NCBI GenBank assembly: GCA_025360995.1
Contig: JANYBD010000056.1
Location: forward strand, 2,996-66,995
Direction of reading: 5' to 3'
Origin: Gemmatimonadota bacterium
Lineage (GTDB): Bacteria > Gemmatimonadota > Gemmatimonadetes > Gemmatimonadales > Gemmatimonadaceae
DNA length: 64,000 nucleotides
The notes beneath the pieces are model-generated. The model saw nothing but the letters and a program-made list of their open reading frames with translations, was not told the DNA's origin and searched no databases. This document shows, piece by piece, positions 2,207-40,979 of this stretch. Every line of letters starts with the position of its first letter. Positions within the stretch are counted from its first letter, which is position 1. Made by a program: the position numbers and the translations under genes.

Positions 2207-3302
2207 CTGTTTGACTTCGGCGAGCGTAGCCGAGCCCGTTACATCCCAAGTCGTTAGCCGTAGGCTGGCAATTCCAGCCTGCGGCCGGGTTCTATTACTA
2301 GCTGGATTCCTGACAATCAGTCTTCCGCTCGACGCGCAGCGCCCGGCCAATCCATTGCCGAACGCCCGCGCAGCGGCGCCACAGCTCACCTTGGATGATC
2401 CAAGTCGCATTCGTCCGTTGCCAGCGACGGCGGAGCTCGCGGCGTTGGTCGGCGAATACGGTGCGGGTGCCGATACGATCATCGTACTCGAGCGCGGGGG
2501 ACGGCTCTTCGCAATGCACTACCCCGCCGAAGTTCAAATCGCCGTCAGTTCGTTCGCCAGGGATTCGGCCGGTCGACCTATAGCGCTCCAGCTCGATACT
2601 CAGCGATTTCCGAGGCGATCCGTCGGCACGGCGGAAGGCGTCACTTTTCGAATTGTTCCTGCGCAGCCCGTCGACGTGCTGCGCCGCCTGGCGTTGGCCG
2701 AACAACCGCCGGTGGAGAGTGGCCACCATCTTCGCAGTGACCTTACTGACGTGGCCGGACTCGAGCACGGCGTCAAGCTCGACATCCGATACGCCACCGC
2801 AAACAACTTTATGGGGGCTCCGATGTACTCGTCGGCCCGCGCGTTTTTACAGCGGCCCGCCGCCGAAGCGCTGATTCGAGCGCATCGGTCATTGGCGGCG
2901 TATGGTTTTGGCTTGCTGATTCACGATGCGTATCGTCCGTGGTACGTGACCCGCATGTTCTGGGACGCGACCACCGGCGCCGAGCGCGGCTTCGTTGCGA
3001 ATCCGGCCACGGGGTCCAAACACAATCGTGGCGCAGCGGTCGATCTCACACTGTATGAACTGTCTACCGGGGCTGCGGTTCGGATGACCGGCGGCTACGA
3101 CGAATTTTCGGAGCGCTCGTACGCTCACTTTCCTGGCGGGACGGCCTTGCAACGGTGGACGCGCGATTTGTTACGGCGGGTAATGGAACGGCAGGGTTTT
3201 ACGGTGAACCCGTCAGAGTGGTGGCATTTCGATTATGAACACTGGCGCGAGTACCCGTTACTAAACACACCGTTCGAGGCCATTGGCCGGCTACGCCGAT
3301 AG
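2169..3302 (+). CDS. D-alanyl-D-alanine dipeptidase (peptidase M15D, VanX/DdpX-like) with long N-terminal extension
   Basis: The C-terminal half carries the VanX-type motifs HDAYRPW, SKHNRGAAVDLTL and EWWHFDY. The N-terminal ~150 aa is an extra region containing a hydrophobic segment. A TTG at 2211, right after the upstream stop, is an alternative start. Confidence 0.8.
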   Translation: MAASPGTSPAPRNCLTSASVAEPVTSQVVSRRLAIPACGRVLLLAGFLTISLPLDAQRPANPLPNARAAAPQLTLDDPSRIRPLPATAELAALVGEYGAGADTIIVLERGGRLFAMHYPAEVQIAVSSFARDSAGRPIALQLDTQRFPRRSVGTAEGVTFRIVPAQPVDVLRRLALAEQPPVESGHHLRSDLTDVAGLEHGVKLDIRYATANNFMGAPMYSSARAFLQRPAAEALIRAHRSLAAYGFGLLIHDAYRPWYVTRMFWDATTGAERGFVANPATGSKHNRGAAVDLTLYELSTGAAVRMTGGYDEFSERSYAHFPGGTALQRWTRDLLRRVMERQGFTVNPSEWWHFDYEHWREYPLLNTPFEAIGRLRR

Positions 3303-21956: not shown

Positions 21957-21989
21957 GCGCTAGTGCAGCGCTAGTGCAGCGCTAGTGCC
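21957..21989. repeat. Tandem repeat, 3 x 11 bp (GCGCTAGTGCA GCGCTAGTGCA GCGCTAGTGCC)
   Basis: Read directly. Each unit contains the AGCGCT palindrome. The last unit supplies the TAG stop of the minus-strand gene ending at 21982. Confidence 0.85.
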
Positions 21990-22425
21990 CGCTCGCTCTC
22001 CTGACACCATTCACGAAGTAACCTGTCTCCCCAAAACAATTGGTTGGGACACCACGATGTTCTGCATAATCAAGGGCGACCAGACCGCCCTCCAATTTCT
22101 GAATCACCTCGGCAACAGAGTCGCCACGCACCGTGAAAATAAAAATCTGCGACATCGCCCCTGGCATGTTCACTTGGGCAAGTTCACCCTCCCACGTTTT
22201 ACAAAGCCACCCCTTTTTCGAAAGCTTTTGCACGTAACCCACCCGATTGCCATGCGAGTAACTGAAATTCAAGGCGACTCCTGCCCAAATGGTGAATACT
22301 AGGGCTGGTGCCGCAACGAGAATTAGCAATGTGAGTTTTCCCCAGTGCCGCCGAACAAAACCACGGGCCGGTGGCATCGCCGGAGCAATCGGCACAGGTT
22401 CGTTGACAGACGTAGGTTCTTTCAT
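21982..22425 (-). CDS. Hypothetical membrane-anchored protein (147 aa)
   Basis: The plausible start MKEPTSV... at 22425 gives one N-terminal TM (LTLLILVAAPALVFTIWAGVAL) plus a soluble domain. The longer ORF to 22812 would overlap ispG and has a low-complexity N-terminus. Confidence 0.5.
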   Translation of the reverse strand: MKEPTSVNEPVPIAPAMPPARGFVRRHWGKLTLLILVAAPALVFTIWAGVALNFSYSHGNRVGYVQKLSKKGWLCKTWEGELAQVNMPGAMSQIFIFTVRGDSVAEVIQKLEGGLVALDYAEHRGVPTNCFGETGYFVNGVRRASGH

Positions 22426-22477
22426 TTGTCTGAGGGCAGGGTAGGGAGCGACAATTCGTGCTGGAAAGTTCGCCTCG

Positions 22478-23776
22478 TTGTCCCGCAACGCCAAGGCCCC
22501 TGCGATCACGCGCGCTCCGCGAGTAGCTTTGGAACGTTCACCACCAGAGGCCGCCGTGGTATTCCAAGAACGCAGAAAAACTGTTACCACGATGGTCGGA
22601 GACGTCGCCGTTGGCTCGAATTGGCCTGTCGTCGTGCAGTCCATGACCAATACCGACACTGCAGACGCCACATTAACCGCGCAACAGGTGGTGGCGCTTG
22701 CGCAGGCTGGCTCGCAGCTCGTTCGGGTTACGGTCAATAACGACGACGCTGCACAAGCGATCCCGGAAATGATTGCGCGCGTTGCCGACCTGGGCGTCTC
22801 CGTTCCAATCATTGGAGACTTTCATTACAACGGACACTTATTGCTCGTGAAATATCCGGAGTGTGCACGCGCACTCGCGAAGTATCGTATTAACCCGGGC
22901 AATGTCGGCAGTCGACATCGGGATGAGAACTTCCGCACGATTATCCGTGTGGCGAGAGACAACGACAAACCCGTACGCATTGGTGTGAACTGGGGATCGC
23001 TGGATCAGGATCTGCTGACGTCAATGATGAACGACAACGCCGGCCTCGCCAACCCACTCGACGCGAAAAACGTCTATATGGAGGCGATGATCGAGAGCGC
23101 GCTACGGTCCGCGCTACTCGCCGAAGAGTCGGGGTTGCCGCACAATCGGATTATCATTTCTGCGAAAATCTCACAGGTGCAGGATTTGCTCGAGTGCTAT
23201 CGCCGGCTCGCAACGCGGTGTGATTACCCGTTACACCTCGGCCTTACCGAAGCGGGGTTGGGAACCAAGGGTGTCGTCTCGACCACGGCAGCGCTGTCTC
23301 TCGTACTTGCCGAAGGCATCGGTGACACTATTCGCGTCTCACTCACGCCGCGTCCCGGCGGTGATCGCACAGAAGAAGTCCAGGTCGCGCAACAGATACT
23401 CCAGTCGCTCGGCCTGCGCGCTTTCGCTCCTCAAGTGACCGCGTGCCCAGGATGCGGCCGAACAACCAGCACGTTTTTTCAAAAAATGGCGGAGGATATT
23501 CAACTGTATCTACGCGAACAAATGCCGCGCTGGAGAGAACACCATCCAGGTGTCGTCGATATGAAGGTCGCGGTGATGGGGTGTGTAGTGAACGGGCCAG
23601 GCGAATCGAAGCACGCCAACATTGGTATCTCCCTGCCAGGAACAGCAGAAGAACCGAAGGCCCCGGTATATGTGGATGGTCGGCTCAGCGTGACGCTGAA
23701 AGGCGACCACATCGTACCGGAATTTCTGGCCATTCTCGACGAATACGTGGTGCGTCGCTACTCCAAGGCCGTGTAG
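22478..23776 (+). CDS. ispG: 4-hydroxy-3-methylbut-2-en-1-yl diphosphate synthase
   Basis: Contains RRKT...VQSMTNTDT and CPGCGRT Fe-S motifs. Confidence 0.9.
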
Positions 23777-26309: not shown

Positions 26310-26810
26310 CTACTGAACCGTGATCGTTCCTTTCATGTTCATGGCAAGGTGTGGAGTGCAATAGAACGCGTATGTCCCCGGCTTGATGCTACCAAGCGAC
26401 AGGGTGAACGAATCACCGATCGTCGTCAACAACGTGCTGCTCAGTTCCGACGCTCTGCCCGCGCCAAAGTTGGCGTCAAGCTGTGCCTTTACGTCGGCAG
26501 GAATGGTTGCGGCATCAAATGCAACATTGTGTGGAATCATTGAGACCACGACGAACTTGATGCCGTCGCCGGCTTTCACCGTGATGTTCGCCGGTTCGAA
26601 ACGATAGCCGGTTGCATCGCCCATCATTTTCACTTCAACCGTTTTTCCCGTGATCGGCGCCGCGGTTCCAGCGGCTCCACTCGACGGCGCTGCCGTTGTT
26701 GCGGCTGCAGGTGCAGGCGTGGCCGGAGCCGTGTCCTGTTTTTTATCGCTACCGCTGCAAGCGCCAAGCACAACAGCGCTCGTCACGAGCGCCAAATTAA
26801 TAAACCGCAT
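26310..26810 (-). CDS. Type-1 copper protein (plastocyanin/pseudoazurin-like cupredoxin), lipoprotein
   Basis: Lipobox LGACSG and Cu ligands PHNVAF...YCTPHLAMNM. ATG 26810 lies 9 nt after AGGAGG (the ORF-track start is 26840). Confidence 0.85.
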   Translation of the reverse strand: MRFINLALVTSAVVLGACSGSDKKQDTAPATPAPAAATTAAPSSGAAGTAAPITGKTVEVKMMGDATGYRFEPANITVKAGDGIKFVVVSMIPHNVAFDAATIPADVKAQLDANFGAGRASELSSTLLTTIGDSFTLSLGSIKPGTYAFYCTPHLAMNMKGTITVQ

Positions 26811-26884
26811 TGCTGTAGTCCTCCTGGACCGAACTACCAAATGAAAGTAATTAAAGACGCGATTTGGATCAGTATTCAGACGAA

Positions 26885-26900
26885 TGTGAAATTATTCACA
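26885..26900. promoter_or_regulatory. CRP/FNR-family binding site, TGTGA-N6-TCACA
   Basis: TGTGAAATTATTCACA read directly, centred about 82 nt upstream of the cupredoxin ATG. Confidence 0.45.
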
Positions 26901-26941
26901 ATACTGCCGAAACGCAAATATGCATTCCGGGTCACGGCCTC

Positions 26942-27670
26942 TTAAAACTTGGACTTTTTGCTCAATCTTGCAACAGAGTCTTCCAACACCCTCAAACGGG
27001 CCGAATCGACCACTTTCTTAGTGGGAATTCCCATTGGAGGCGGGGGAGCGGAGTCGGGCATCCCGGCCGCATATGCCGTGAGTACCCGCTCCATCCAAGC
27101 CCAGTCTTGAGCTCCAAAGAAGGACTTACCATTAATAATGAAAGCGGGAGTTCCCCGGACGCCGTGTCGCCGCGCCGCTTCGTCTGCCGCGTCGAGCCGC
27201 CTTTGGTGATCCTTTCGCGCCGCACACATCGCAAATTTCGCTGTATCGAGCTTTAACTCGGTGGCGTACTTCTGCAACGCGGCTGGAATGTCGGTCTCGC
27301 GCTTCCATTTGTCTTGACGCTCGAACAACAGCTCGTGCATCTCCCAAAAATGGCCCTGTTCTATGGCGCAAGTCATTGCTGCCGATCCCGCGACACTGCC
27401 GCGATGCCAGGCGAGATCAATTACGGTCAGTTGCACTTTCTTGCCGCCAACCCAGGTCATGCGAAGCGGCTCCGCAGCGCTTCGCGAAAACGTGCGACAA
27501 TCTTCGCAAACGAGATCGTCAAAGTACATCATCTTGATCGGAGCCTGCGCGTCGCCCTCCCGATACGCCACCGCCGCCGCGTCGGGGTCGGCGCCGGTCG
27601 TTGCGGTCGAACTGCAGGCGAACAGAAAGGTTGCCAGAACCGGGGCAAGGTATCGGTGAGAGGGTCGCAT
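26942..27670 (-). CDS. DsbA-family thiol:disulfide oxidoreductase, lipoprotein
   Basis: CEDC active site and thioredoxin-fold layout. The start MRPSHRYLAPVLATFLFACSS (27670) gives a lipobox. The ORF track extends to 27733. Confidence 0.75.
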   Translation of the reverse strand: MRPSHRYLAPVLATFLFACSSTATTGADPDAAAVAYREGDAQAPIKMMYFDDLVCEDCRTFSRSAAEPLRMTWVGGKKVQLTVIDLAWHRGSVAGSAAMTCAIEQGHFWEMHELLFERQDKWKRETDIPAALQKYATELKLDTAKFAMCAARKDHQRRLDAADEAARRHGVRGTPAFIINGKSFFGAQDWAWMERVLTAYAAGMPDSAPPPPMGIPTKKVVDSARLRVLEDSVARLSKKSKF

Positions 27671-27680
27671 ACCAACAAAT

Positions 27681-27709
27681 TTGACGAAAGGCCGCTTCGT
27701 CGCTAGTCT
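27681..27709 (+). promoter_or_regulatory. Candidate his operon promoter: TTGACG-17 nt-TAGTCT
   Basis: Read directly. The -10 box ends 7 nt before the leader-peptide ATG. Confidence 0.35.
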
Positions 27710-27716
27710 TGGTCCT

Positions 27717-27803
27717 ATGCGCCTCACCGCCATCCATCACGTGCACCGCCACCACGGCCAGTCGGGCCGGGGGATCGTCGTGTGTTTCCGGATGCTTGCG
27801 TAG
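27717..27803 (+). CDS. his operon leader peptide (28 aa, MRLTAIHHVHRHHGQSGRGIVVCFRMLA)
   Basis: Hand-translated. 5 His codons fall within 7 consecutive codons (27735-27755). It lies between a promoter-like element and a terminator, upstream of hisG. It is too short for the ORF track. Confidence 0.55.
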   Translation: MRLTAIHHVHRHHGQSGRGIVVCFRMLA

Positions 27804-27837
27804 CGCCTCTCCGAGATTTCACCGCCCGACCCTTCGG

Positions 27838-27863
27838 CTCGTCCAGACTGGACGGGCTTTTTT
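27838..27863 (+). terminator. Intrinsic terminator / attenuator in the his leader
   Basis: Stem CTCGTCC / GGACGGG (one G-U pair), loop AGACT, then C TTTTTT. It ends 40 nt before the hisG ATG. Confidence 0.6.
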
Positions 27864-27903
27864 CTTGGCGGTTGTTCGCAGTTAACCTCTGACAGACCAT
27901 ACC

Positions 27904-28770
27904 ATGCTTCGCATAGCGCTACCAAACAAAGGCCGACTCAACCAGGAATGCCGGGAATTGCTCGCCGACGCCGGTCTCGAAGTACGTGCATCCAGCGAGC
28001 GGGCGCTCACCGCTTCACTGGGAGGCGAATTCGAAGCGATCTTTGTGCGCGCTCAGGATATTCCCGAATTTGTCGCCGATGGGGCCGCGGATGCCGGCAT
28101 CACCGGTTGGGATCTGGTCAGCGAGTCCGAGCGCGGACTTGAATCCCGACTCGATCTCGCATTCGGGAACTGCCGCATTGTCGTCGCGGTACGCGACGAC
28201 AGTGATGTGCGGACCCTGGAAGACATCGGTGCAGGAGTACGGGTGGCCACTGTCTTCCCCAGGCTGACCCGGGCTTTTTTTGCGTCTGCCGGTCGCGCCG
28301 TTGAAATCGTTCCGATTTCCGGAGCCGTCGAAATCGCACCACACCTCGGAATTGCCGACATTATCGTTGACCTGACCTCGACTGGCTCCACGCTGCGCGT
28401 CAACGGATTGCGCGAAGTGGCCACGGTATTGGAGTCAAGTGCGCGCCTCATCACGGCCCGTGGTGACGGTGCCGCGCCCAGCGCGCGCGCAAGCGCTCTC
28501 GATGAACTTGTAATTTCGCTCCAGTCTGTCTTGGCAGCGCGAGGACAGCGCTACGTCATGGCAAACGTCCCGCGGGCAAAGCTCGATGAGGTGAAACGCG
28601 TTTTACCGGGCATCTCCGGCCCAACCATCATCGACCTCATGAATGGCGGGACGATGGTCGCGGTGCACGCAGTTGCCCCAGCCGAAACGATTTATAGAAC
28701 ACTCGCCGAACTCAAGCGACTTGGTGGCGAAGGCATTCTCGTCACAAGGATCGAGAGGTTAATGGCATGA
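27904..28770 (+). CDS. hisG: ATP phosphoribosyltransferase (long form)
   Basis: 288 aa. Has the MLRIALPNKGRL start and a C-terminal regulatory domain. Confidence 0.95.
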   Translation: MLRIALPNKGRLNQECRELLADAGLEVRASSERALTASLGGEFEAIFVRAQDIPEFVADGAADAGITGWDLVSESERGLESRLDLAFGNCRIVVAVRDDSDVRTLEDIGAGVRVATVFPRLTRAFFASAGRAVEIVPISGAVEIAPHLGIADIIVDLTSTGSTLRVNGLREVATVLESSARLITARGDGAAPSARASALDELVISLQSVLAARGQRYVMANVPRAKLDEVKRVLPGISGPTIIDLMNGGTMVAVHAVAPAETIYRTLAELKRLGGEGILVTRIERLMA

Positions 28771-30074
28771 ATGCCCTTTCTCTGGCCGTGCGTGGAACGT
28801 ACGGCGAGCTTACGGCAGCGCAACACGCAATTCTGTTTGACCGCGCAACGAGCTCCGACGACATGATTCGCGCCACCACCGCGGCCATACTGCAACGCGT
28901 GCGAATCGATGGCGACACTGCGCTGCGCGCACTCGCGCTCGAGTTCGATAACATCGCACTTGAGACATTCGAAATCCCGCGCATGCGCTGGCAATCCGCC
29001 TTGGCATCCCTGGATCCGAAACTCCGTAGTGCGCTCGAGCGTGCGGTCGCAAATATTCGGAGCGCGCACCAAGTCTTCCGGCCGGTGAATCGCGAATTCA
29101 CCACAACGGATGGCGTGACGATTAGTCGCCGAGCCACACCACTGCACCGCGTCGGTGTCTATGCGCCTGGTGGACGGGCAACTTACCCCAGTAGTCTGTT
29201 GATGGGTGTTGTGCCGGCCCGCGTGGCCGGTGTGGATGAAGTCATCGTTTGTTCTCCCCCGGCGCCCGATGGCGCGCCGTCTCCGGTGCTGCTCGCCGCG
29301 GCAGAGCTCGCCGGTGCCGACCGCGTGTTCGCGCTCGGTGGTGCCGGTGCTGTTGCCGCGATGGCCTATGGTACTGCAACCGTTCCGCGGGTCGATCGTA
29401 TTGTTGGTCCGGGTAACGCATGGGTTGCCGAAGCGAAACTACAAGTGGCCGGGGTCGTCGCCATAGATGCGCCGGCGGGCCCAAGCGAACTGCTAGTGAT
29501 CGCCGATGACTCAGCGGACGCTGACATCATCGCACGCGAATTGTTGGCGCAAGCCGAACACGACCCCATGGCAACAGTCGTGCTGGTGACTACCAGTATG
29601 TCACTCGTAGACCGTGTGGATAGCCGTCTCGCTGTGCTTGTTTCGGGCGCTGCACGTGAGTCGATCATTCGGCAGTCATTGGCGCGTCGGGGTGCCTTCA
29701 TTGTTGTTCCCGCACTCAATGACGCGTTGACCTTCGCATCCGATTTCGCCGCGGAACACGTGCTCGTTGTGTGCAGTGATGCTGAATCTGTGGCTGACCG
29801 CGTGCGGAATGCCGGCACCGTGTTCATCGGCGCCTATAGCAGTGTTGCGTTTGGCGACTACCTCACTGGAGCCAATCACGTTCTCCCGACTGGCGGCTTG
29901 GCCAGGAGTTATTCTGGATTGTCAACCATAGACTTCTATAGATGGACTACTCGGCAACGCATCAGCCAAAGCGCGGCCGCCGCGTTGGCAAGTGATGTGG
30001 GCACCTTGGCCGATGCGGAGGGGTTGCCCGCTCACGCGGCTGCGGCCCGCCACTGGCAGGAGAAATCTGCATGA
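28767..30074 (+). CDS. hisD: Histidinol dehydrogenase
   Basis: 435 aa with typical HisD blocks (GGAGAVAAMAYGT, QAEHDP). Overlaps hisG by 4 nt. Confidence 0.95.
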   Translation: MNALSLAVRGTYGELTAAQHAILFDRATSSDDMIRATTAAILQRVRIDGDTALRALALEFDNIALETFEIPRMRWQSALASLDPKLRSALERAVANIRSAHQVFRPVNREFTTTDGVTISRRATPLHRVGVYAPGGRATYPSSLLMGVVPARVAGVDEVIVCSPPAPDGAPSPVLLAAAELAGADRVFALGGAGAVAAMAYGTATVPRVDRIVGPGNAWVAEAKLQVAGVVAIDAPAGPSELLVIADDSADADIIARELLAQAEHDPMATVVLVTTSMSLVDRVDSRLAVLVSGAARESIIRQSLARRGAFIVVPALNDALTFASDFAAEHVLVVCSDAESVADRVRNAGTVFIGAYSSVAFGDYLTGANHVLPTGGLARSYSGLSTIDFYRWTTRQRISQSAAAALASDVGTLADAEGLPAHAAAARHWQEKSA

Positions 30075-31132
30075 CCCAACGTCGTGCCGATCAACTCGCC
30101 CGCGAAGGTTTCAACGCGATCCCACGATATAGCTCGGGAGCCGACGTGGAGATCGATCTCAGTGACAACACCAATGCGTGGGGTACACCACCTGCGGCAC
30201 GTAGCGTGCTCCGTGCCGCAGCGGGAACAGGCGCTGCGCGCTATCCCGATCTGTATGGCGAATCACTCAAACGCACCGTCGCCGATCGGGCTGGCATTTC
30301 ACCGGCATGCGTCGTTACCGGAAACGGATCTGACGATGTGTTGGACTGCGCCATCCGCGCGTTTGCGGCACCCGGCGACACCATTGCGCACCCGGATCCC
30401 ACTTTTGTGATGCTCCCTGTATTTTCGCGCATCAACAATATCCGGCCGGTGCCCGTTCCACTGACGGCGGACTACGCCATGGATGCCGATGCGCTTCTGG
30501 CGACCGGGGCCCGAATTATTTATCTCTGCTCACCGAATAACCCGACCGGCACGGCTACACCTGCCGATGTGATACGCAAAGTGATTGCGCACGCACCCGG
30601 GTTAGTCATCGTTGATGAGGCGTACGCCGAGTTTGCCGGAGTTCCGGGCCTCTTGTCCGAAGCACCCTCGCTTGAGCGCGTACTGGTCTGTCGGACGTTC
30701 TCCAAAGCTTACGGACTTGCTGGGTTGCGTGTGGGGTATGGGACCGCAACGCCAGCGATTATCGAAACAATCGAACGGTCTCGCGGACCGTACAAGCTGA
30801 ACATTTTTGCCGAACGCGCGGCCGTCGCAGCAATGACGGACGACGCGGGGTGGGTGGTTGAGCGCGCGGCTGAAGCGGTCGCGAATCGAGTTCGGCTTAG
30901 CGATGCCCTCTCAGCAATGGGGCTCAGCGCATTGCCATCGGCGACAAATTTCCTGCTGGTTCCTACGCCAAAAACTGTTGTGCTCGCGGCACGGCTCCGA
31001 GCGAACGGAATTGGTATTCGCGCGTTTCAAAACTTGCCCGGACTTGGCGATGCAATGCGCATCACCGCCGGGCCGTGGCCGGTTATGGAGCGAGTGCTCA
31101 GCGTCATTGCCGACGGCTTGGAGGGTTCGTAG
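30071..31132 (+). CDS. hisC: Histidinol-phosphate aminotransferase
   Basis: Class II aminotransferase (CSPNNPTG, FSKAYGLAGLRVGY). Confidence 0.9.
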   Translation: MTQRRADQLAREGFNAIPRYSSGADVEIDLSDNTNAWGTPPAARSVLRAAAGTGAARYPDLYGESLKRTVADRAGISPACVVTGNGSDDVLDCAIRAFAAPGDTIAHPDPTFVMLPVFSRINNIRPVPVPLTADYAMDADALLATGARIIYLCSPNNPTGTATPADVIRKVIAHAPGLVIVDEAYAEFAGVPGLLSEAPSLERVLVCRTFSKAYGLAGLRVGYGTATPAIIETIERSRGPYKLNIFAERAAVAAMTDDAGWVVERAAEAVANRVRLSDALSAMGLSALPSATNFLLVPTPKTVVLAARLRANGIGIRAFQNLPGLGDAMRITAGPWPVMERVLSVIADGLEGS

Positions 31133-31722
31133 TGCGTATTACCGTGTTCGACTATGGCGCCGGCAACCTCCACTCGCTCACCAAATCACTGGGCGGCGAG
31201 GGTCGGGACGTAACGCTTGTCAGCAATCCGCAATTGGCACTCGACACAGACGTCCTGATACTTCCGGGCGTTGGTGCGTTCGCTCCTGCCGTTGCGGCAA
31301 TGGCCGCGGCGCGCGACATCATGCGGTCCGCGCTGCAGGCGGGGCTTCCCTGTCTCGGGGTTTGTCTCGGCATGCAACTGTTGTTCGAGTCAAGCGACGA
31401 GGGTGACGGAGAGGGCCTCGCAATTTTCGGTGGCCGTGTGGAGCGACTACGCGCACAACATGTGCCACAGATCGGCTGGAATGACATTGAAGACGTAAAC
31501 GATCTACTGTTCGCACGATCCAGCCTGCGGACCGCATACTATGCGAACAGTTTCGTCTGCCGTCCAACCGATCCGACAGTGGTGACCGCGTGGTCGACAC
31601 ACGACGGCGATCGTTTTCCGGCAGCCGTTCGGGCCGGAAATGTGGTAGGCGTGCAATTCCATCCAGAGAAAAGCTCAACACCAGGCGTGCGATTCATCGA
31701 GGAGTTTTTGCAGACATGTTAG
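31132..31722 (+). CDS. hisH: Imidazole glycerol phosphate synthase, glutaminase subunit
   Basis: Contains VRITVFDYGAGNLHS, GVCLGMQ and HPEKS. The GTG start overlaps the hisC stop by 1 nt (TAGTG). Confidence 0.9.
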   Translation: MRITVFDYGAGNLHSLTKSLGGEGRDVTLVSNPQLALDTDVLILPGVGAFAPAVAAMAAARDIMRSALQAGLPCLGVCLGMQLLFESSDEGDGEGLAIFGGRVERLRAQHVPQIGWNDIEDVNDLLFARSSLRTAYYANSFVCRPTDPTVVTAWSTHDGDRFPAAVRAGNVVGVQFHPEKSSTPGVRFIEEFLQTC

Positions 31723-32429
31723 CGATTCCAGCGTTGGATTTACGCGACGGGCATGTCGTGCAATTGATCGGTGGAGACTACGCCCATGAGAGTATTCGCC
31801 TCGAGCGGCCGCGTGACGTGGCCCGTGAGTGGAGCCACCATGGTTTCCACCGGCTACACATCGTCGACCTCGACGCAGCCACCGCACGGGGATCCAATCG
31901 GCAAGTGGTTCGTGATCTGCTCGCCGACAAGATTTGTCCGATGCAAGTCGGTGGCGGTGTTCGCACGGACGACGACATTCGCTCCTTGGTTGATGACGGA
32001 GCGGATTGGGTGATCGTCGGCACGCGAGCGCTCGAGGAACCGGCGTGGCTCGAAGAGACCGCGGCGAACTTCCCGGGACGTCTCATTGTCGCGGCAGATG
32101 TGCGTGAGCGAAACGTGGTGACCCGTGGGTGGTCGCGGCAACTACGACGCACCATTCTGGATGTGGTTGACGATATGCGTGGCCTTGCCCTCGGCGGCTT
32201 GCTGGTCACGGCCGTGCATCGCGAAGGGTTACTGCAAGGCACGGACCTCCCGCTCATGGAAGACGTGGCCGAAGCGAGCGCATGGCCGGTGCATGCATCA
32301 GGCGGTATTGCCACGATGGCCGATCTTCGAGCACTTGACGAGCGCGGCATCGCGGGCGTTGTGATAGGAATGGCACTCTATACCGGAACACTCGACCCGC
32401 GCATTGTCGCGGAGGAGTTCGCGCAATGA
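31716..32429 (+). CDS. hisA: ProFAR isomerase
   Basis: MLAIPALDLRDG start, (beta/alpha)8 family. Overlaps hisH by 7 nt. Confidence 0.9.
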   Translation: MLAIPALDLRDGHVVQLIGGDYAHESIRLERPRDVAREWSHHGFHRLHIVDLDAATARGSNRQVVRDLLADKICPMQVGGGVRTDDDIRSLVDDGADWVIVGTRALEEPAWLEETAANFPGRLIVAADVRERNVVTRGWSRQLRRTILDVVDDMRGLALGGLLVTAVHREGLLQGTDLPLMEDVAEASAWPVHASGGIATMADLRALDERGIAGVVIGMALYTGTLDPRIVAEEFAQ

Positions 32430-32971
32430 CGTCATCGAAAATTGTGGAACGCAACACTGCCGAAACGCGCATCCGTGTCGAGGTCGCACCGGGAACCGGG
32501 CTCGCGCGTGTCGCGACGTCCGTGCCATTTCTTGATCACATGTTAGTGGCATTGGCAAAATACAGCGGCCTGGATCTCACGGTCGCGGCCTCTGGTGATT
32601 TGCGGCATCATATCATTGAAGACGTTGGCCTCACGGTCGGTGCAGCGATTGCAGCGGCCGTCCCGGTTGGCGCGGCGCGGTACGGGGAACACACCGTACC
32701 GATGGACGATGCACTGGTGCAGGCCGTGATCGATGTCGGGGGTCGTCCGTTCTATCAAGGTCCACTGCCGAGTTCACTCTACGAGCACTGGATGCGTTCC
32801 TTCTGTGATGCCGGAAAGTTTACGCTTCACCTCCGGGTGTTGCGAGGCGACGATCGCCATCATGTTGTCGAAGCGGCATTCAAGGCGCTCGGGTTTTCGC
32901 TGAGACAGGCGCTGGCTGACGGCGGCACCGTGATGAGCACCAAAGGCACCGTCTCCGTGGAACACGCGTGA
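32426..32971 (+). CDS. hisB: Imidazoleglycerol-phosphate dehydratase (monofunctional)
   Basis: Contains RNTAETRI, FLDHML and HHIIED motifs. 181 aa, with no phosphatase domain. Confidence 0.9.
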   Translation: MTSSKIVERNTAETRIRVEVAPGTGLARVATSVPFLDHMLVALAKYSGLDLTVAASGDLRHHIIEDVGLTVGAAIAAAVPVGAARYGEHTVPMDDALVQAVIDVGGRPFYQGPLPSSLYEHWMRSFCDAGKFTLHLRVLRGDDRHHVVEAAFKALGFSLRQALADGGTVMSTKGTVSVEHA

Positions 32972-33732
32972 GCTTGTCCCGTCGTGTCATCGTGTGTCTC
33001 GACGTAAGAGACGGTCGGGTCGTAAAGGGAGTGCAGTTTGAGGGTTTGCGCGAGGTTGGCGACCCTGTCGAGCTCGCGCAGCATTATGAGCGTGACGGTG
33101 CCGACGAGATCACGTTTCTCGATATTTCGGCGACGATTGACGCGCGAGCCACACTCTTCGATCTCGTCCGGCGCACCGCGGAGCAGCTGTTCATTCCTCT
33201 AACGGTAGGTGGTGGGATTCGTACGGTGGACGATATCGCCGCGGCACTTCGCGCCGGCGCCGACAAGGTCAGTGTGAACTCAGCGGCGGTATATTCGCCG
33301 GAGATTCTTGCTGAAGGGGCCGCACGTTTTGGGACACAGTGCATCGTCGCGAGTATCGATGCCAAGCGCGAGGGGACTTCGTGGCGCGTGTATACGTCGG
33401 GCGGCAAGCGTCGCACGGAGCTCGACGCCATCGAATGGGCACACTACTGCGTTGCCCAAGGTGCCGGTGAGATACTTCTCACCAGCATTGATCAGGACGG
33501 ATCCCGCAACGGATACGACCTCGCGCTCACGCACGCGGTGGCGTCAACCGTTACGGTTCCGGTGATTGCCAGTGGCGGTGCCGGCGTGGCATCGCATATC
33601 TGTGATGCCATCGCCATTGGCGCGGCTGATGCGGTGCTCGTCGCGGGGATTCTCCACGACAGAGTCAGCACGGTTGGTGCGCTCAAGCGCGCCCTGCGTG
33701 ACGCTGGTCAATCCGTGCGGCTGGTCGCATGA
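32968..33732 (+). CDS. hisF: Imidazole glycerol phosphate synthase, cyclase subunit
   Basis: Contains RVIVCLDV..GRVVKG and GGGIR motifs. Confidence 0.95.
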   Translation: MSLSRRVIVCLDVRDGRVVKGVQFEGLREVGDPVELAQHYERDGADEITFLDISATIDARATLFDLVRRTAEQLFIPLTVGGGIRTVDDIAAALRAGADKVSVNSAAVYSPEILAEGAARFGTQCIVASIDAKREGTSWRVYTSGGKRRTELDAIEWAHYCVAQGAGEILLTSIDQDGSRNGYDLALTHAVASTVTVPVIASGGAGVASHICDAIAIGAADAVLVAGILHDRVSTVGALKRALRDAGQSVRLVA

Positions 33733-34505
33733 GCGAATCTCTCGAATCGCTGATGCAGGCCGCGCAAGAAGCGGCGCGGCTCGCCGGGCGCTATGCCTTG
33801 CAATATTATCGCAGCAATATTTCGGTGGACATCAAGGGTGATGGCAGCCCCGTGACTGAAGCCGATCGCGGAGCCGAGCGGGCAGTTCGTGATTGGATCA
33901 ACAAACGATTTCCGAATGACGGGATTTTCGGTGAGGAGTTTGGAGAACGTATTGGCACCAGTGGTCGCCGCTGGGTGCTTGATCCCATCGACGGTACCAA
34001 AAACTTTGTGCGGGGCGTGCCGTTGTGGGGATCACTCGTTGCGGTGATTGACGTCGAACACGTAGTGGCCGGAGCGGCTTGCTTCCCGGCAGTAGATGAG
34101 ACGATCAGCGCCGCACGCGGGTGCGGCGCATGGAATAACAATGTCCGTGCCGCGGTAAGCACTGTGGACGATGTCCGGTCGGCAACGGTGCTGATCACCG
34201 ATGATCGCGAGCTCGGCGAGTGTCTGACCCACACGACGTGGAACGCCGTTGCCAACAACGCCGCCGTCTATCGCACTTGGGGCGATTGCTTTGGCTATTT
34301 GCTTGTCGCCACCGGCCGCGCCGACGTGATGGTTGATCCGCGAGCCAACCTGTGGGACGTGGCCTGCTTCCAGCCCATCATTGAGGAAGCCGGCGGTGTT
34401 TTTACCGACCTCCTTGGCGTGCCAACGGCGTTCGGTGGTCATGCCATCGCCACCAATGCTGCGCTTGCCGTCCGTGTGCGCGCCGAACTTGGCATCGGTA
34501 CATGA
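33729..34505 (+). CDS. hisN: Inositol-monophosphatase-family protein, probable histidinol-phosphate phosphatase
   Basis: IMPase motifs GEE, WVLDPIDGTKNF and WGDCFGYLLVATGRAD. It sits inside the his operon, where no other HolP phosphatase is encoded. Confidence 0.7.
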   Translation: MSESLESLMQAAQEAARLAGRYALQYYRSNISVDIKGDGSPVTEADRGAERAVRDWINKRFPNDGIFGEEFGERIGTSGRRWVLDPIDGTKNFVRGVPLWGSLVAVIDVEHVVAGAACFPAVDETISAARGCGAWNNNVRAAVSTVDDVRSATVLITDDRELGECLTHTTWNAVANNAAVYRTWGDCFGYLLVATGRADVMVDPRANLWDVACFQPIIEEAGGVFTDLLGVPTAFGGHAIATNAALAVRVRAELGIGT

Positions 34506-34554
34506 AGGGAGACTCCGCGCTTTTTTCCACCCGTTTTCTACAGGCAGAACCAGG

Positions 34555-35148
34555 ATGAATCTCGACGCGCTCAATTTTGAGAAGGGCAGTGGCCTCGTCA
34601 GCGTGGTCACCCAGGATGCGCAGAGCGGGCAGGTGTTGATGCAAGCGTTCGCGAGCCGGGAAGCTTTGGAGCGCACACTGGCGACCGGGCAAATGCATTA
34701 TCACTCGCGCACGCGTGGCCTCTGGCACAAGGGAGCGTCGAGCGGCAACACCCAACAGGTGATATCCCTAACCGCGGATTGCGATGGCGATACCATCCTT
34801 GCCCGGGTGATTCCGGCCGGTCCGGCATGTCACACGGGCACCGTCACTTGTTTTGGTGACGTTGCCGCCGATACACTCGGTGAGCTTGATGCAATGATCG
34901 ACAGCAGATCTGTGGTGCCGCCATCCGCCACGGTCAGCTATACCGCTAGGTTACTCGGCGACCGGAACCTTCGCCTCAAGAAAATCGGCGAGGAATCCAG
35001 TGAGTTTGTCACGGCGTGTGCGGACGGGGACGCGGTGCGCGCTACCGAAGAGGCGGCCGACCTGCTGTATCATATGCTGGTCGCGTTGCACGCCGTCGGC
35101 GGTTCGCTCGACGGGGTGCGTAGCGAATTGCGCGCTAGAACGAAGTAA
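34555..35148 (+). CDS. hisIE: Bifunctional phosphoribosyl-AMP cyclohydrolase / phosphoribosyl-ATP pyrophosphatase
   Basis: HisI block (LVSVVTQD...VLMQAF...HYHSRTRGLWHKG..SGN) followed by a HisE block (LYHMLVAL). The internal ATG at 34555 is chosen because the upstream part of the ORF overlaps hisN. Confidence 0.9.
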   Translation: MNLDALNFEKGSGLVSVVTQDAQSGQVLMQAFASREALERTLATGQMHYHSRTRGLWHKGASSGNTQQVISLTADCDGDTILARVIPAGPACHTGTVTCFGDVAADTLGELDAMIDSRSVVPPSATVSYTARLLGDRNLRLKKIGEESSEFVTACADGDAVRATEEAADLLYHMLVALHAVGGSLDGVRSELRARTK

Positions 35149-37863: not shown

Positions 37864-38808
37864 GTGATGACACCCGACGAACTGTTTCGCATACTGCGCC
37901 CCACGCTTGTCGCGGAGCGCTTGCACCAATTGGTTCCGCTGGCGTCGCTGACCACATTTAAAATTGGCGGGCCTGCCGACGTACTGTACGATGCCACATC
38001 GGCCGACGACCTCGCTAGCGCCGTTGCGACCGCCCGTACCATCGGTATCCCCTTCTTTGTACTCGGACTTGGCGCAAACGTTCTGATTGGCGATCGCGGT
38101 TTTCGCGGCCTCGTGATTCGAAACACCGCTGCACAACTTGAGTTCCCATCCGCCAATCTCGTGCGAGCTGAGAGCGGTATTGTCATAGCTGATCTCATCA
38201 AAATCACGGTGGCACGAGGGCTCTCCGGACTCGAACACTATGTGGGCATTCCAAGCACCGTCGGTGGGGCGGTCTGGCAAAACCTCCATTTCCTTTCCCC
38301 TGCCCCGGAACGCGAACGGACGATATTCATCGCCGATATTGTCGAATCCGTTGAATTGCTGACGGCGAGTGGTGAGCGCCTTGCAGTCGACCGCCAAGCC
38401 ATGCGGTTCGGATACGACACCAGTCGGCTGCATGACTCTGGCGACGTCGCGCTCGCCGTCACCTTTCGACTCACCCCGGAAGACCCTACCACGCTGCAGC
38501 GCATCATGCAGGAGAATTTAAGCTGGCGAGGTTCACGCCATCCGTGGCTTGAACATCACCCCAGTGCCGGTTCCATCTTTCGGAAGATCGAAGGAATGGG
38601 CGCCGGGCGCCTAATTGAACAATGCGGACTAAAGGGTCACCGCATTGGCAATGCGCAAATTTCTTATATTCATGCCAATATCATTGTCAATCTTGGCGGT
38701 GCGACCGCCGCGGACGTTCGAGCCCTGATCGCTACGGCACAACAATCCGTACGCGAGCGGTTTGATCAACAGCTCGAGCCGGAAATCGGATTCGTCGGCG
38801 AGTTCTAG
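37864..38808 (+). CDS. murB: UDP-N-acetylenolpyruvoylglucosamine reductase
   Basis: FAD-binding domain pattern (TTFKIGGPAD, LGLGANVL) and the MurB C-terminal domain. Confidence 0.9.
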   Translation: MMTPDELFRILRPTLVAERLHQLVPLASLTTFKIGGPADVLYDATSADDLASAVATARTIGIPFFVLGLGANVLIGDRGFRGLVIRNTAAQLEFPSANLVRAESGIVIADLIKITVARGLSGLEHYVGIPSTVGGAVWQNLHFLSPAPERERTIFIADIVESVELLTASGERLAVDRQAMRFGYDTSRLHDSGDVALAVTFRLTPEDPTTLQRIMQENLSWRGSRHPWLEHHPSAGSIFRKIEGMGAGRLIEQCGLKGHRIGNAQISYIHANIIVNLGGATAADVRALIATAQQSVRERFDQQLEPEIGFVGEF

Positions 38809-40979
38809 AAGAGTTGCCCTAGGTCAACCTGCATCTTCCACGGACCGGACCTGTCTATCGGCCGGGCAACACCGATACCGAGTGCGCCGCCAAAAAGCCG
38901 AATCCCAGCGTTCACCGACGCTCGGGCATTTCCGGTGACAACAGAAACAGGCAGTCCGTCCGCTGATGTCCCGAGTCGCTGAATTGCGGCACGCGCCATA
39001 GCATCCGACGCGCCCGTCCAGCCGGTCTGCGCGCTGAGAAAGAGCGCTGGAGACAGTGAGGGAAGCCAGAGTCTGCTGGTCAGATGAATCGGCGCATTCA
39101 ACACGTTCAATCGATACATCACCAGGCCACGCAACACAGCGGCTTGATCGCCGGCGAATTCTTTGTATCCATAGCCTGCCAAATTCTGCGTACTCCCCAG
39201 CTCGAATAGTTGTTGCGAGAGGCGGTCGCCGACCAGTGCCCCGGCATCGAAGCGACTTGCGAAAGTCCACCGGTCTTTGTTTTGGCGTGCACTGAGCCGC
39301 AATTCCACGCGCTGAAATTTCAACTCCCCGTCTCCGCGGAGATAACTCAAAGCAGCGCCAGCTCCGGTGCGCATAAACTCAGCGGCCGCATCCGGGTGCC
39401 ACTCCACGGTGATCGCCGTCCGAACATACGATCCGGCATCTACCCCTCTGTTGGGCAGAAAGTGCGTGGAGACGATCGGTCCTCGCGTCAATGTTGCCAC
39501 GGTGTTTCTGTCTTGCGCCCAGCCACTTTCAAATCGAACACGTGCCGAATTGCCTACCAGGGAACGGGTAACGGCGACTCCGGCACTGTACCGATCCACG
39601 TAGTCGTAGTCGTCGAAGCCGAACAACGCTCCGAAACTCGATCCAGAGTCCAATGGAACACGAAAATCGTTCGTGTTATCAAGTGATCGCCCAACACGAA
39701 TCGCATACGTCCAAACATTTCTGCGCAGTTCGGCGGAGATCCGGCCTCGAACCGTCCGTTCGTTCCAGGCATATCCGGCAATGACTCGTGTGGTCAATCC
39801 AGGTGCTGCGTCGCGAAAACGCGCGCTCACTCCGAGTCCGGTGAACAACCCTTCAACTCGATTGAAGCGAATCAGATCTGTCGCCCGTTCGGTTTGCAGC
39901 GTGATCACCGGCGGGCCTGAGGTGCGCCAGCGCGGAGGTGCGACATCAGCAAAGTCATCACTCGTTGCGGAGGCGGTCGCCGCACCAATATCCGAACGCC
40001 ACGCGCGGAACCGTGCAAGCGAATCCGCTGCGGCGATCCGGAGGACGTGTGGTTGCGCTCGCAGTGTGTCCTCCCGCACCACGTTGGCCGCACCGGCAAC
40101 ACTGTCTGGAGCGCTAATCTGATAATCGCGAAACCGCGACACGATGCGAAAGACGGCCTTGGCATCGCCAATAACGGGCGCCATCGCTTGCGCTTCGAAT
40201 CGTTGGTACGACGGCAGCCAGTACTGCTGGTTCACCTCGCTGTTTACCAGCTCGACATATACAACTCCTTGCAACCTCGTCGGACCCAGCAATGTGTTCA
40301 GTGGGCTGTCTGACTCGCCAGATGACGCGAATGCTCCGCGCATTCGCACGACGTTCATCCGGTCCACGTCTAGGTCGATTTCACCGCTGAAAAGAATGGT
40401 CCGGGACGGTAGCTTTGATTTCGGAATTACTTCAATGTGCACAATTCGAATTTCTCGATCACCCACCCGCAGCTTCTCGACCAAGTTTCCACCACTGTAC
40501 CGGTAGACGCGCTCACGGTCGTCTGCCAGCGGATGCACGGCGAACATCGTCCGTCGTGCGTTCGCGCCGCGCATCCCGCCGCGTGTGGTGTCGCGTCCAA
40601 AGAGTAGCGCCAAACGATTCCCATAGAGCGAGGGCACGGCCCATGAATTGCGAAGAAATCCGATCGTCGCAAACTCCAAGCCAAGTGCCTGCGCGCGGTA
40701 CCCGATTACCCGCTGCTCGAACTCTCCGGTACGAGCCCATGTCAGCGTGCTGGCCACCTGTTCGATCGACGCGGACATTTCCGCACCGCCACCGTCGTGC
40801 GTGCCAACGGAGATTTCACTTTCGAGGTTCGCGTAATAGCGCCCCAATGTTGGTGGCACACGATGGTTGATGCGGGCCGCCTCGACGACCAATGCACGCA
40901 CGGCCGCGTTGGAATACGTCGCCGTGTCAGTCGGAAGATTCGCCGCAGCCGTCTGTGCAAAAAAGAGGATCGGAAGCAT
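38805..40979 (-). CDS. Large predicted outer-membrane beta-barrel protein (function unknown)
   Basis: 724 aa. The C-terminal half alternates in beta-strand-like fashion and is rich in G/Y/R, with a terminal ...VDLGQLF (aromatic last residue). Its start codon directly follows the stop of the upstream gene (TAGATG). Confidence 0.55.
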   Translation of the reverse strand: MLPILFFAQTAAANLPTDTATYSNAAVRALVVEAARINHRVPPTLGRYYANLESEISVGTHDGGGAEMSASIEQVASTLTWARTGEFEQRVIGYRAQALGLEFATIGFLRNSWAVPSLYGNRLALLFGRDTTRGGMRGANARRTMFAVHPLADDRERVYRYSGGNLVEKLRVGDREIRIVHIEVIPKSKLPSRTILFSGEIDLDVDRMNVVRMRGAFASSGESDSPLNTLLGPTRLQGVVYVELVNSEVNQQYWLPSYQRFEAQAMAPVIGDAKAVFRIVSRFRDYQISAPDSVAGAANVVREDTLRAQPHVLRIAAADSLARFRAWRSDIGAATASATSDDFADVAPPRWRTSGPPVITLQTERATDLIRFNRVEGLFTGLGVSARFRDAAPGLTTRVIAGYAWNERTVRGRISAELRRNVWTYAIRVGRSLDNTNDFRVPLDSGSSFGALFGFDDYDYVDRYSAGVAVTRSLVGNSARVRFESGWAQDRNTVATLTRGPIVSTHFLPNRGVDAGSYVRTAITVEWHPDAAAEFMRTGAGAALSYLRGDGELKFQRVELRLSARQNKDRWTFASRFDAGALVGDRLSQQLFELGSTQNLAGYGYKEFAGDQAAVLRGLVMYRLNVLNAPIHLTSRLWLPSLSPALFLSAQTGWTGASDAMARAAIQRLGTSADGLPVSVVTGNARASVNAGIRLFGGALGIGVARPIDRSGPWKMQVDLGQLF

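Follow-up and report, generated by a model that had tools for sequence, protein, structure and literature searches.

A putative ribosome-mediated attenuator upstream of the histidine operon in Gemmatimonadota and some Myxococcota

Introduction

In Escherichia coli, the leader peptide of the histidine operon (MTRVQFKHHHHHHHPD) carries seven uninterrupted His codons in an open reading frame (ORF) led by a Shine-Dalgarno (SD) sequence, and the leader RNA has a six-segment structure (A-F); in the trp operon of the same organism, the stop codon of the leader separates region 1 from region 2, so that the terminating ribosome masks region 2. The element described in this work lies directly upstream of hisG in a 64,000-nucleotide (nt) stretch of DNA from a Gemmatimonadota bacterium (assembly GCA_025360995.1, contig JANYBD010000056.1; this whole stretch is hereafter called the window, and positions are counted within it). 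Based on a comparison with related loci, we propose, with a probability of about 0.85, that this element is a His-responsive ribosome-mediated (leader-peptide) transcription attenuator of the complete his operon, very probably switching the operon on when histidine is short.

Leader-peptide attenuators that sense histidine have already been described or predicted in gamma-proteobacteria and in several Firmicutes lineages (PMC9413887). Those predicted in the Firmicutes (in the Bacillus cereus group, the Peptostreptococcaceae and the Erysipelotrichales) contain three to five consecutive His codons (PMC9413887), and leaders of the hisS/hisZ paralogues are known from bacilli (PMC2965389). Like the element described here, the Firmicutes leaders are lineage-specific His-codon peptides with a terminator and an antiterminator, unmatched by the Rfam family His_leader (RF00514) (PMC9413887, PMC2965389), but they belong to other phyla, and the likeness is to their published descriptions. 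Leaderless leader-peptide attenuators with mapped 5' ends are known in the form of the polycysteine upstream ORFs of mycobacteria (bioRxiv 10.1101/834739). As proposed for our case, these are small ORFs located at, or a few nt from, the 5' end, which start on AUG or GUG and need no SD sequence, whereas the leaderless status proposed here is deduced from promoter spacing, and both the amino acid and the phyla differ.

With hisL and RF00514, the Gemmatimonadota element shares a short His-run ORF immediately ahead of hisG, an intrinsic terminator that precedes the first structural gene, an antiterminator that uses the terminator 5' arm, and regulatory codons placed in the 5' strand of an upstream hairpin; the circuit logic is the same, but there is no detectable homology in sequence or structure. 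In contrast with the E. coli his leader, the ORF has 23-32 codons and a His run broken by other residues (HHHVHHHH; in the window, HHVHRHH), it is apparently leaderless, its stop codon is found past region 2, and a scheme of three helices (1:2, 2:3 and 3:4) suffices. With trpL, the element shares the four-segment logic and a terminator that is thermodynamically favored in the full-length leader, although another amino acid would be sensed and the stop codon lies a median of 13 nt (-1 to 24) past the 3' end of the helix P1 (see below), which is the base of the 1:2 hairpin. What we report is a new sequence family and lineage within the textbook attenuator class, the mechanism itself being already known.

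Methods

Eighty loci were picked solely by HisG similarity (68-81% identity), with one genome per GTDB species, and since this selection is blind to the sequence upstream of the gene, they provide an unbiased test of what is conserved there. Nearly all of these loci are labelled Gemmatimonadota, mostly Gemmatimonadaceae or Gemmatimonas, and the Myxococcota contribute four, namely three cultured Corallococcus strains and a metagenome-assembled genome (MAG) of the Archangiaceae. Two loci came later: L081 (an ENA contig, with a HisG 96% identical to that of the window) and L082 (GCA_016195065.1, HisG 80%). The extra HisG protein search, aimed at distant phyla, was saturated by relatives of 76-96% identity, and gained two close loci with no added breadth.

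Eighty-one leaders were aligned with MAFFT (alignment A1, to which the column numbers below refer). MAFFT mis-registers a one-nucleotide bulge in one subgroup of leaders (GCGG/CCGC, see below), and an alignment-free duplex permutation test was used instead. For the ribosome-mask folding, transcripts were cut where the terminator 5' arm ends, the point at which the choice between the helices would be made, and a 28-nt ribosome mask was placed at varied positions. Equilibrium folding of full-length masked leaders was rejected as a test, the decision being kinetic, and was replaced by this folding of truncated transcripts.

Results

A preliminary description of the window, made from its sequence alone, had proposed a ribosome-mediated his attenuator and had suggested checking whether relatives keep the His run, its reading frame and the terminator. 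All three are conserved: an in-frame His-rich mini-ORF and a terminator stand upstream of hisG in 80/80 loci, and also in L081 and L082, and every one of the 80 has a frame with at least four His codons in eight, no more than 350 nt upstream of hisG. Wherever the upstream sequence is complete (78 loci), an ATG (occasionally a GTG) is found 4-10 codons before the run and a stop codon after it, giving peptides of mostly 23-32 residues. The relatives have 4-8 His codons in the leader, in a run typically broken by one Val or Ala codon.

These loci have a common cassette, formed by a promoter at fixed spacing, the His-rich ORF, the motif CAC-GGCCCGACGGGUCGGGG, a constant-length spacer (36-51 nt) and the terminator GGCCCGUCC/GGACGGGCC, with an almost constant distance (about 155-170 nt) between the start codon and the terminator. 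In alignment A1, the motif CAC-GGC-CCG-ACG-GGU-CGG-GG directly follows the His run and is nearly invariant, a GCGCGUG-like element is located about 10 nt past it, and the terminator (GGCCCGUCC-loop-GGACGGGCC-U-run) is again near-invariant. The stretch between the stop codon and region 3 has a constant length and weak structure (mean z = -0.6), and a conserved hairpin in it is not counted among the parts of the element. A few relatives have longer upstream in-frame ORFs (59-81 residues), which were dismissed as leader candidates: it is the proximal start codon that the conserved promoter immediately precedes.

The HisG relatives place the source genome (about 58-60% G+C) in the Gemmatimonadota, so that the earlier judgement that the window is not enterobacterial was right. 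The same cassette also occurs in the Myxococcota (L051, positions 2771-2975, as well as L056, L072 and L076, these being the Corallococcus strains and the Archangiaceae MAG), whose HisG is about 69% identical to the Gemmatimonadota protein. In Corallococcus, the cassette reads TTGACG-17-TAACCC-7-GTG, with a leader that starts on GTG (MRSTSLHHHHAHH...) and the same GGCCCGUCC/GGACGGGCC terminator. This suggests that the his operon moved between phyla together with its regulator, or else a very old common ancestry. Additionally, MAGs labelled "Proteobacteria bacterium" and "Candidatus Eisenbacteria" (L082; L033 and L066) have a Gemmatimonadota-like HisG (70-80%) and the same leader; these are either mislabelled bins or a sign of wider spread of the cassette.

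In the window itself, the leader ORF was found exactly where the preliminary description had placed it, with five His codons among seven (Table 1). When the 233-nt intergenic region was shuffled 20,000 times with its dinucleotides preserved, at least five His codons in seven arose in any of the six frames only four times (2e-4), and the site is unique across the six frames of the 64-kb window; given this rarity and uniqueness, the His run is no chance feature. Across the alignment, the His codons comprise 263 CAC and 223 CAT, and such free drift between CAC and CAU, which leaves the amino acid unchanged, is the mark of a translated sequence, from which we infer that the leader ORF is translated. 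Past the run, fourfold-degenerate third positions of Gly and Thr codons are near-fixed (C in 76/81 sequences at column 74, G in 79/81 at column 80), which indicates RNA constraint, the peptide motif GPTGRG being a by-product of it.

The promoter proposed earlier (TTGACG-17-TAGTCT), as well as the leaderless translation deduced from it, is supported by the conservation of both boxes at a fixed distance from the leader start codon. In 71/78 relatives, a TTG[AC]N box begins 35-42 nt 5' of this codon, and a TANNNT box, beginning 11-16 nt and ending 6-11 nt before it, is present in 67/78. A simple promoter scanner gave no site reaching its threshold, and since the -10 box is TANNNT-like and not TATAAT-like, the evidence for the promoter is its conservation. 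With the -10 box ending 6-11 nt before the start codon, transcription should start at or near the leader AUG, in the window presumably at A27717 or within a few nt of it, and translation of the leader ORF is probably leaderless or near-leaderless. An SD-like core precedes only 2/78 of the leader starts in the relatives; it precedes hisG in just 12/81, and there is no such core upstream of hisG in the window (27888-27903). The lineage thus seems to rely largely on SD-independent initiation, and, with hisG itself mostly devoid of an SD sequence, its lack at the leader ORF is not diagnostic of leaderless status.

The GC hairpin with its U-run, ending 40 nt before the hisG ATG, stands as originally described, except that it has ten pairs and a three-nt loop (GAC) instead of seven pairs and a five-nt loop. 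Over the 81 sequences, 99% of the cells in this helix (columns 164-172 with 183-191) are paired, RNAalifold finds it too, and there are compensatory changes at three pairs (GC to AU, or the reverse, at the two basal pairs and CG to GC, or the reverse, at the apical pair). The near-invariance of the arms, even though HisG identity falls to 68%, fits segments that would each need two pairing partners. In the window, the 5' arm is GGCUCGUCC, with a U at 27839, where the family almost invariantly has GGCCCGUCC; this U makes a G.U pair in the terminator as well as in the antiterminator. Its close relative L081 has the consensus C at the equivalent position, and a Tyr codon in place of the first His codon.

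Besides the terminator, two further helices can form. Upstream, the center of the His run (CAC-GYG-CAY) pairs with the GCGCGUG element (P1; 83% of cells paired, with changes on both sides at 5/7 pairs), and the post-His motif forms a small hairpin (P2; 90-95% paired, also recovered by RNAalifold); together, P1 and P2 make a single imperfect hairpin, helix 1:2, with the His codon run as its 5' strand and an energy of -20.2 kcal/mol in the window (RNAfold). The antiterminator, previously drawn as a bulged pairing of 27764-27773 with 27830-27840, has there the core of a conserved helix that is longer and has no bulge (15 bp, -23.9 kcal/mol, by-eye pairing and RNAduplex). In the alignment (columns 77-88 with 160-171), 84.8% of its cells are paired, as opposed to 35-56% after shifting the 3' partner 1-3 columns out of register. 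The outer pairs of this helix vary, and in one subgroup, GCGG in the leader is matched by CCGC ahead of the terminator, the pairing containing a one-nucleotide bulge; in the permutation test, which ignores phylogeny, these variable outer duplexes have a mean energy of -9.03 kcal/mol for cognate and -7.36 kcal/mol for non-cognate partners, and 0/5000 permutations reach the cognate mean. The mean energies of the three helices in the 81 sequences (-25.1 kcal/mol for 1:2, -24.9 for the 2:3 duplex and -19.2 for 3:4) are similar, which is compatible with a switch. Pairing and covariation thus support three mutually exclusive helices, 1:2, 2:3 and 3:4. At equilibrium, the full-length leader folds into the terminator in nearly all states. 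The detailed assignment of the helices, like the leaderless status, carries moderate confidence.

When the ribosome mask was placed on the first His codon of the truncated transcripts, the terminator 5' arm paired with region 2 in 98% of the sequences, and on the middle His codon in 94%. This pairing was found in 53% of the sequences with no ribosome and in 63% with the mask at the stop codon, and it fell to 7% with the mask on the last His codon, where it covers region 2 itself.

Table 1. Features of the his leader and of the operon downstream, in window coordinates
Feature	Position	Strand	Description	Basis
-35 box	27681-27686	+	TTGACG; 17-nt spacer to the -10 box	sequence, relatives
-10 box	27704-27709	+	TAGTCT, TANNNT type; ends 7 nt before the leader ATG	sequence, relatives
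Leader ORF (hisL analogue)	27717-27803	+	28 codons, MRLTAIHHVHRHHGQSGRGIVVCFRMLA*; ATG 27717, TAG 27801-27803	sequence
His codon run	27735-27755	+	CAT CAC gtg CAC cgc CAC CAC; in region 1, 5' strand of the 5' hairpin	5 His in 7 codons
Region 1	27735-27759	+	His codons	four-segment scheme
Region 2	27761-27784	+	first 17 nt are the antiterminator 5' strand	four-segment scheme
Region 3	27827-27845	+	antiterminator 3' strand and terminator 5' arm	four-segment scheme
Region 4	27849-27858	+	terminator 3' arm, then U-run	four-segment scheme
Helix 1:2 (anti-antiterminator)	27735-27784	+	imperfect hairpin, 27735-27759 with 27765-27784	RNAfold, covariation
Antiterminator 5' strand	27761-27777	+	GUCGGGCCGGGGGAUCG; family motif equivalent GACGGGUCGGGG	alignment, duplex
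Antiterminator 3' strand	27827-27843	+	covers 8/10 nt of the terminator 5' arm	duplex, alignment
Intrinsic terminator (helix 3:4)	27836-27864	+	stem 27836-27845 with 27849-27858, TTTTTT ending at 27864	10 bp
Putatively regulated operon	27904-35148	+	hisG-hisD-hisC-hisH-hisA-hisB-hisF-hisN (inositol monophosphatase family)-hisIE; hisG ATG at 27904	NCBIfam and Pfam hits

Discussion

Based on these comparisons, the element could work as follows. Transcription would start at, or a few nt from, ATG 27717, and the leader ORF would be read from a leaderless or near-leaderless mRNA, in which the His codon run is region 1, the hairpin strand opposite region 2. With plentiful His-transfer RNA (tRNA), the ribosome would reach the stop codon, helix 1:2 would form or re-form locally and, with region 2 so occupied, helix 3:4 would fold and RNA polymerase would halt at the U-run, 40 nt before hisG. 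When charged His-tRNA is scarce, the ribosome would stall on the early His codons and cover region 1, and the free region 2 would pair with the emerging region 3 (through 27827-27843); the terminator 5' arm would then be lost, and transcription would continue into hisGDCHABF-hisN-hisIE. Both the termination at 3:4 and the response to histidine are what we infer from the arrangement of the sequence. The interpretation as a ribosome-mediated his attenuator, already offered by the preliminary description, is thus the one that the comparative evidence supports.

Several observations weigh against this interpretation. The leader ORF ends past region 2, with its stop codon 25-45 nt short of region 3, so a terminating ribosome is in no position to mask region 2 in the manner of trp; if histidine is sufficient, termination then needs region 2 to be shielded by the passing ribosome and, after that, by fast local refolding of helix 1:2, which is an assumption. 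The folding itself gives a moderate discrimination family-wide between the stalled and the free or stop-codon states (0.79 versus 0.47-0.54, in truncated transcripts), and the window's own sequence gives none, since its antiterminator forms in all states but the stall at the last His codon. In the full-length leader at equilibrium, the terminator forms in nearly all states whatever the mask, and the minimum free energy of the whole leader is no better than that of shuffled sequences (z of 0.05 for 27710-27870 and 0.47 for 27735-27835). The covariation evidence for the antiterminator comes from its outer part, the six core pairs being invariant or nearly so, and all permutation tests ignore phylogeny. 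In Fisher tests on single columns, only the pair 85/163 is significant (P = 0.004), while 50/100 and 83/165 are not and 52/98 is borderline (P = 0.053). Finally, the window has only five His codons, interrupted by Val and Arg, and its nearest relative has four. With z values near zero, global stability is uninformative about a switch, and with the terminator winning at equilibrium, the choice made by an attenuator must be kinetic. In E. coli trp too, helix 3:4 is more stable than 2:3, and a kinetic decision is accepted.

The lack of a clean switch in equilibrium folding is one of the reasons for considering an attenuator that does not act through intrinsic termination alone, in which translation of the leader controls Rho-dependent polarity or hisG initiation, or senses translation speed or guanosine tetra- and pentaphosphate ((p)ppGpp). 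The scarcity of SD-like cores ahead of hisG (12/81) means that its initiation could hinge on upstream events, and reinitiation after leader peptides has been proposed to boost downstream translation (PMC4833913). However, about 100 nt separate the leader stop codon from the hisG start, a distance too great for direct coupling, the regulatory codons found ahead of these his genes are those for His specifically, and the canonical GC-rich hairpin with its U-run is nearly invariant. Because this canonical intrinsic terminator is present, such a variant is less economical than an attenuator working by intrinsic termination, and we regard it as quite unlikely. The strong conservation at the nucleotide level downstream of the His run would also suit an untranslated structured RNA (a riboswitch- or T-box-like sensor, or a protein-binding site), the His codons being a by-product of a CAY-rich motif, and His T-boxes do regulate his genes in other phyla (PMC9413887). 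Yet in every sequence a single reading frame runs through the CAY repeats, opened by a start codon 4-10 codons before them and closed by a stop codon after them, the variation inside them consists of C and U exchanges at third positions, the placement of the promoter puts the start codon right at the 5' end, and no T-box, riboswitch or other Rfam model fits the region, even at E<=10; this makes an untranslated RNA exceedingly unlikely.

It is very unlikely, too, that the unit is a free-standing small gene (for a His-rich, perhaps metal-binding, peptide or for a small RNA, sRNA) ending in its own terminator, with hisG expressed independently. It does have its own promoter and terminator, it weakly resembles an sRNA family below threshold (mmgR/suhB, 25.2 bits against a gathering score of 41), and the attenuator transcript and leader peptide of Sinorhizobium (rnTrpL and peTrpL) can act in trans (PMC7298713, PMC7968998). 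Against this, the unit is immediately upstream of hisG in 82/82 relatives from two phyla, and the approximately 40 nt from the U-run to hisG contain no promoter-like site and leave no room for a separate promoter. Moreover, apart from the His run, conservation of the peptide is confined to the RNA-constrained part, and the antiterminator helix would be purposeless. As to the resemblance, the sub-threshold Rfam matches (to mmgR/suhB, a Betaproteobacteria toxic sRNA and anti-hemB) align to the terminator hairpin only and were rejected. By analogy with rnTrpL/peTrpL, the terminated product of an attenuator, here an RNA of about 150 nt, leaderless, that would encode a His-rich peptide with a conserved ...HGPTGRG segment, may be a candidate for action in trans; that the cassette is one homologous, horizontally transferred module travelling with the his operon and that its terminated product also acts in trans is, taken as a whole, unlikely.

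Our preferred reading, the leader-peptide attenuator, had been presented in the preliminary description as not known to be described for such a lineage, and this agrees with the databases and literature that we searched. Searched with Rfam, the 64-kb window and 18 related loci gave no family at gathering score; in particular, His_leader (RF00514) is absent from the matches to 27600-27960 even with the cut-off at E<=10, as it is from those to the 18 relatives at gathering score, and the T-box model matches neither the window nor the relatives. In the literature searched, in which subscription journals are mostly uncovered, no paper mentioning Gemmatimonad* or Myxococc* also treats a his attenuator or leader peptide. 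The element would thus extend classical ribosome-mediated attenuation to the Gemmatimonadota and the Myxococcota, phyla without amino-acid leader-peptide attenuators in Rfam 15 or in that literature. Since the mechanism needs a translating ribosome to influence the polymerase, it would imply functional transcription-translation coupling in these lineages, probably from leaderless mRNA. The 81-sequence alignment (promoter, ORF and three helices) describes a well-defined RNA family, which could join Rfam and serve to annotate his regulation in MAGs from soil and freshwater, and the cultured Corallococcus carriers (L051, L072 and L076) make the element testable. Among the cultured strains with the element are Corallococcus exercitus AB043A, C. 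aberystwythensis AB050A and C. praedator CA031B. No concept is changed by it; its value lies in the annotation and in a handle on coupling and leaderless initiation in under-studied phyla.

The operon that follows the leader is complete, with nine genes, a hisG of the long form, and neighbors that overlap or abut. The gene of the inositol-monophosphatase family located between hisF and hisIE (33729-34505) is presumably the histidinol-phosphatase gene hisN, and the order G-D-C-H-A-B-F-N-IE is unlike that of the enterobacterial his genes. The stretch between the terminator and hisG, short in the window, is widened in some relatives by short tandem repeats: tctcccatc three times in L001 (about 2930-3000), cctgttt/cctgctt eight times in L049 (about 790-925) and ttgtttgctccaac three times in L074 (about 2920-2960). 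In the whole 64-kb window, ARAGORN found no tRNA or transfer-messenger RNA gene, and two long ORFs on the minus strand (38805-40979, 724 residues, and 21982-22812, 276 residues) have no Pfam match at E<=1e-5.

On its other side, the leader is bordered by a divergent gene for a thioredoxin-like lipoprotein (minus strand; Rcas_1661 family, below the family cut-off), which together with a plastocyanin-like cupredoxin gene occupies 26310-27670 on that strand; the same pair is found upstream of the leader in L081. The true start of the lipoprotein gene is ATG 27670 (minus strand; MRPSHRYLAPVLATFLFAC...), marked by a signal peptide with a lipobox, and the start of the longer ORF, which reaches 27733 on the same strand, was rejected on that ground. 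As this ATG is just 11 nt from the -35 box of the his leader, the two promoters must be back to back or overlap.

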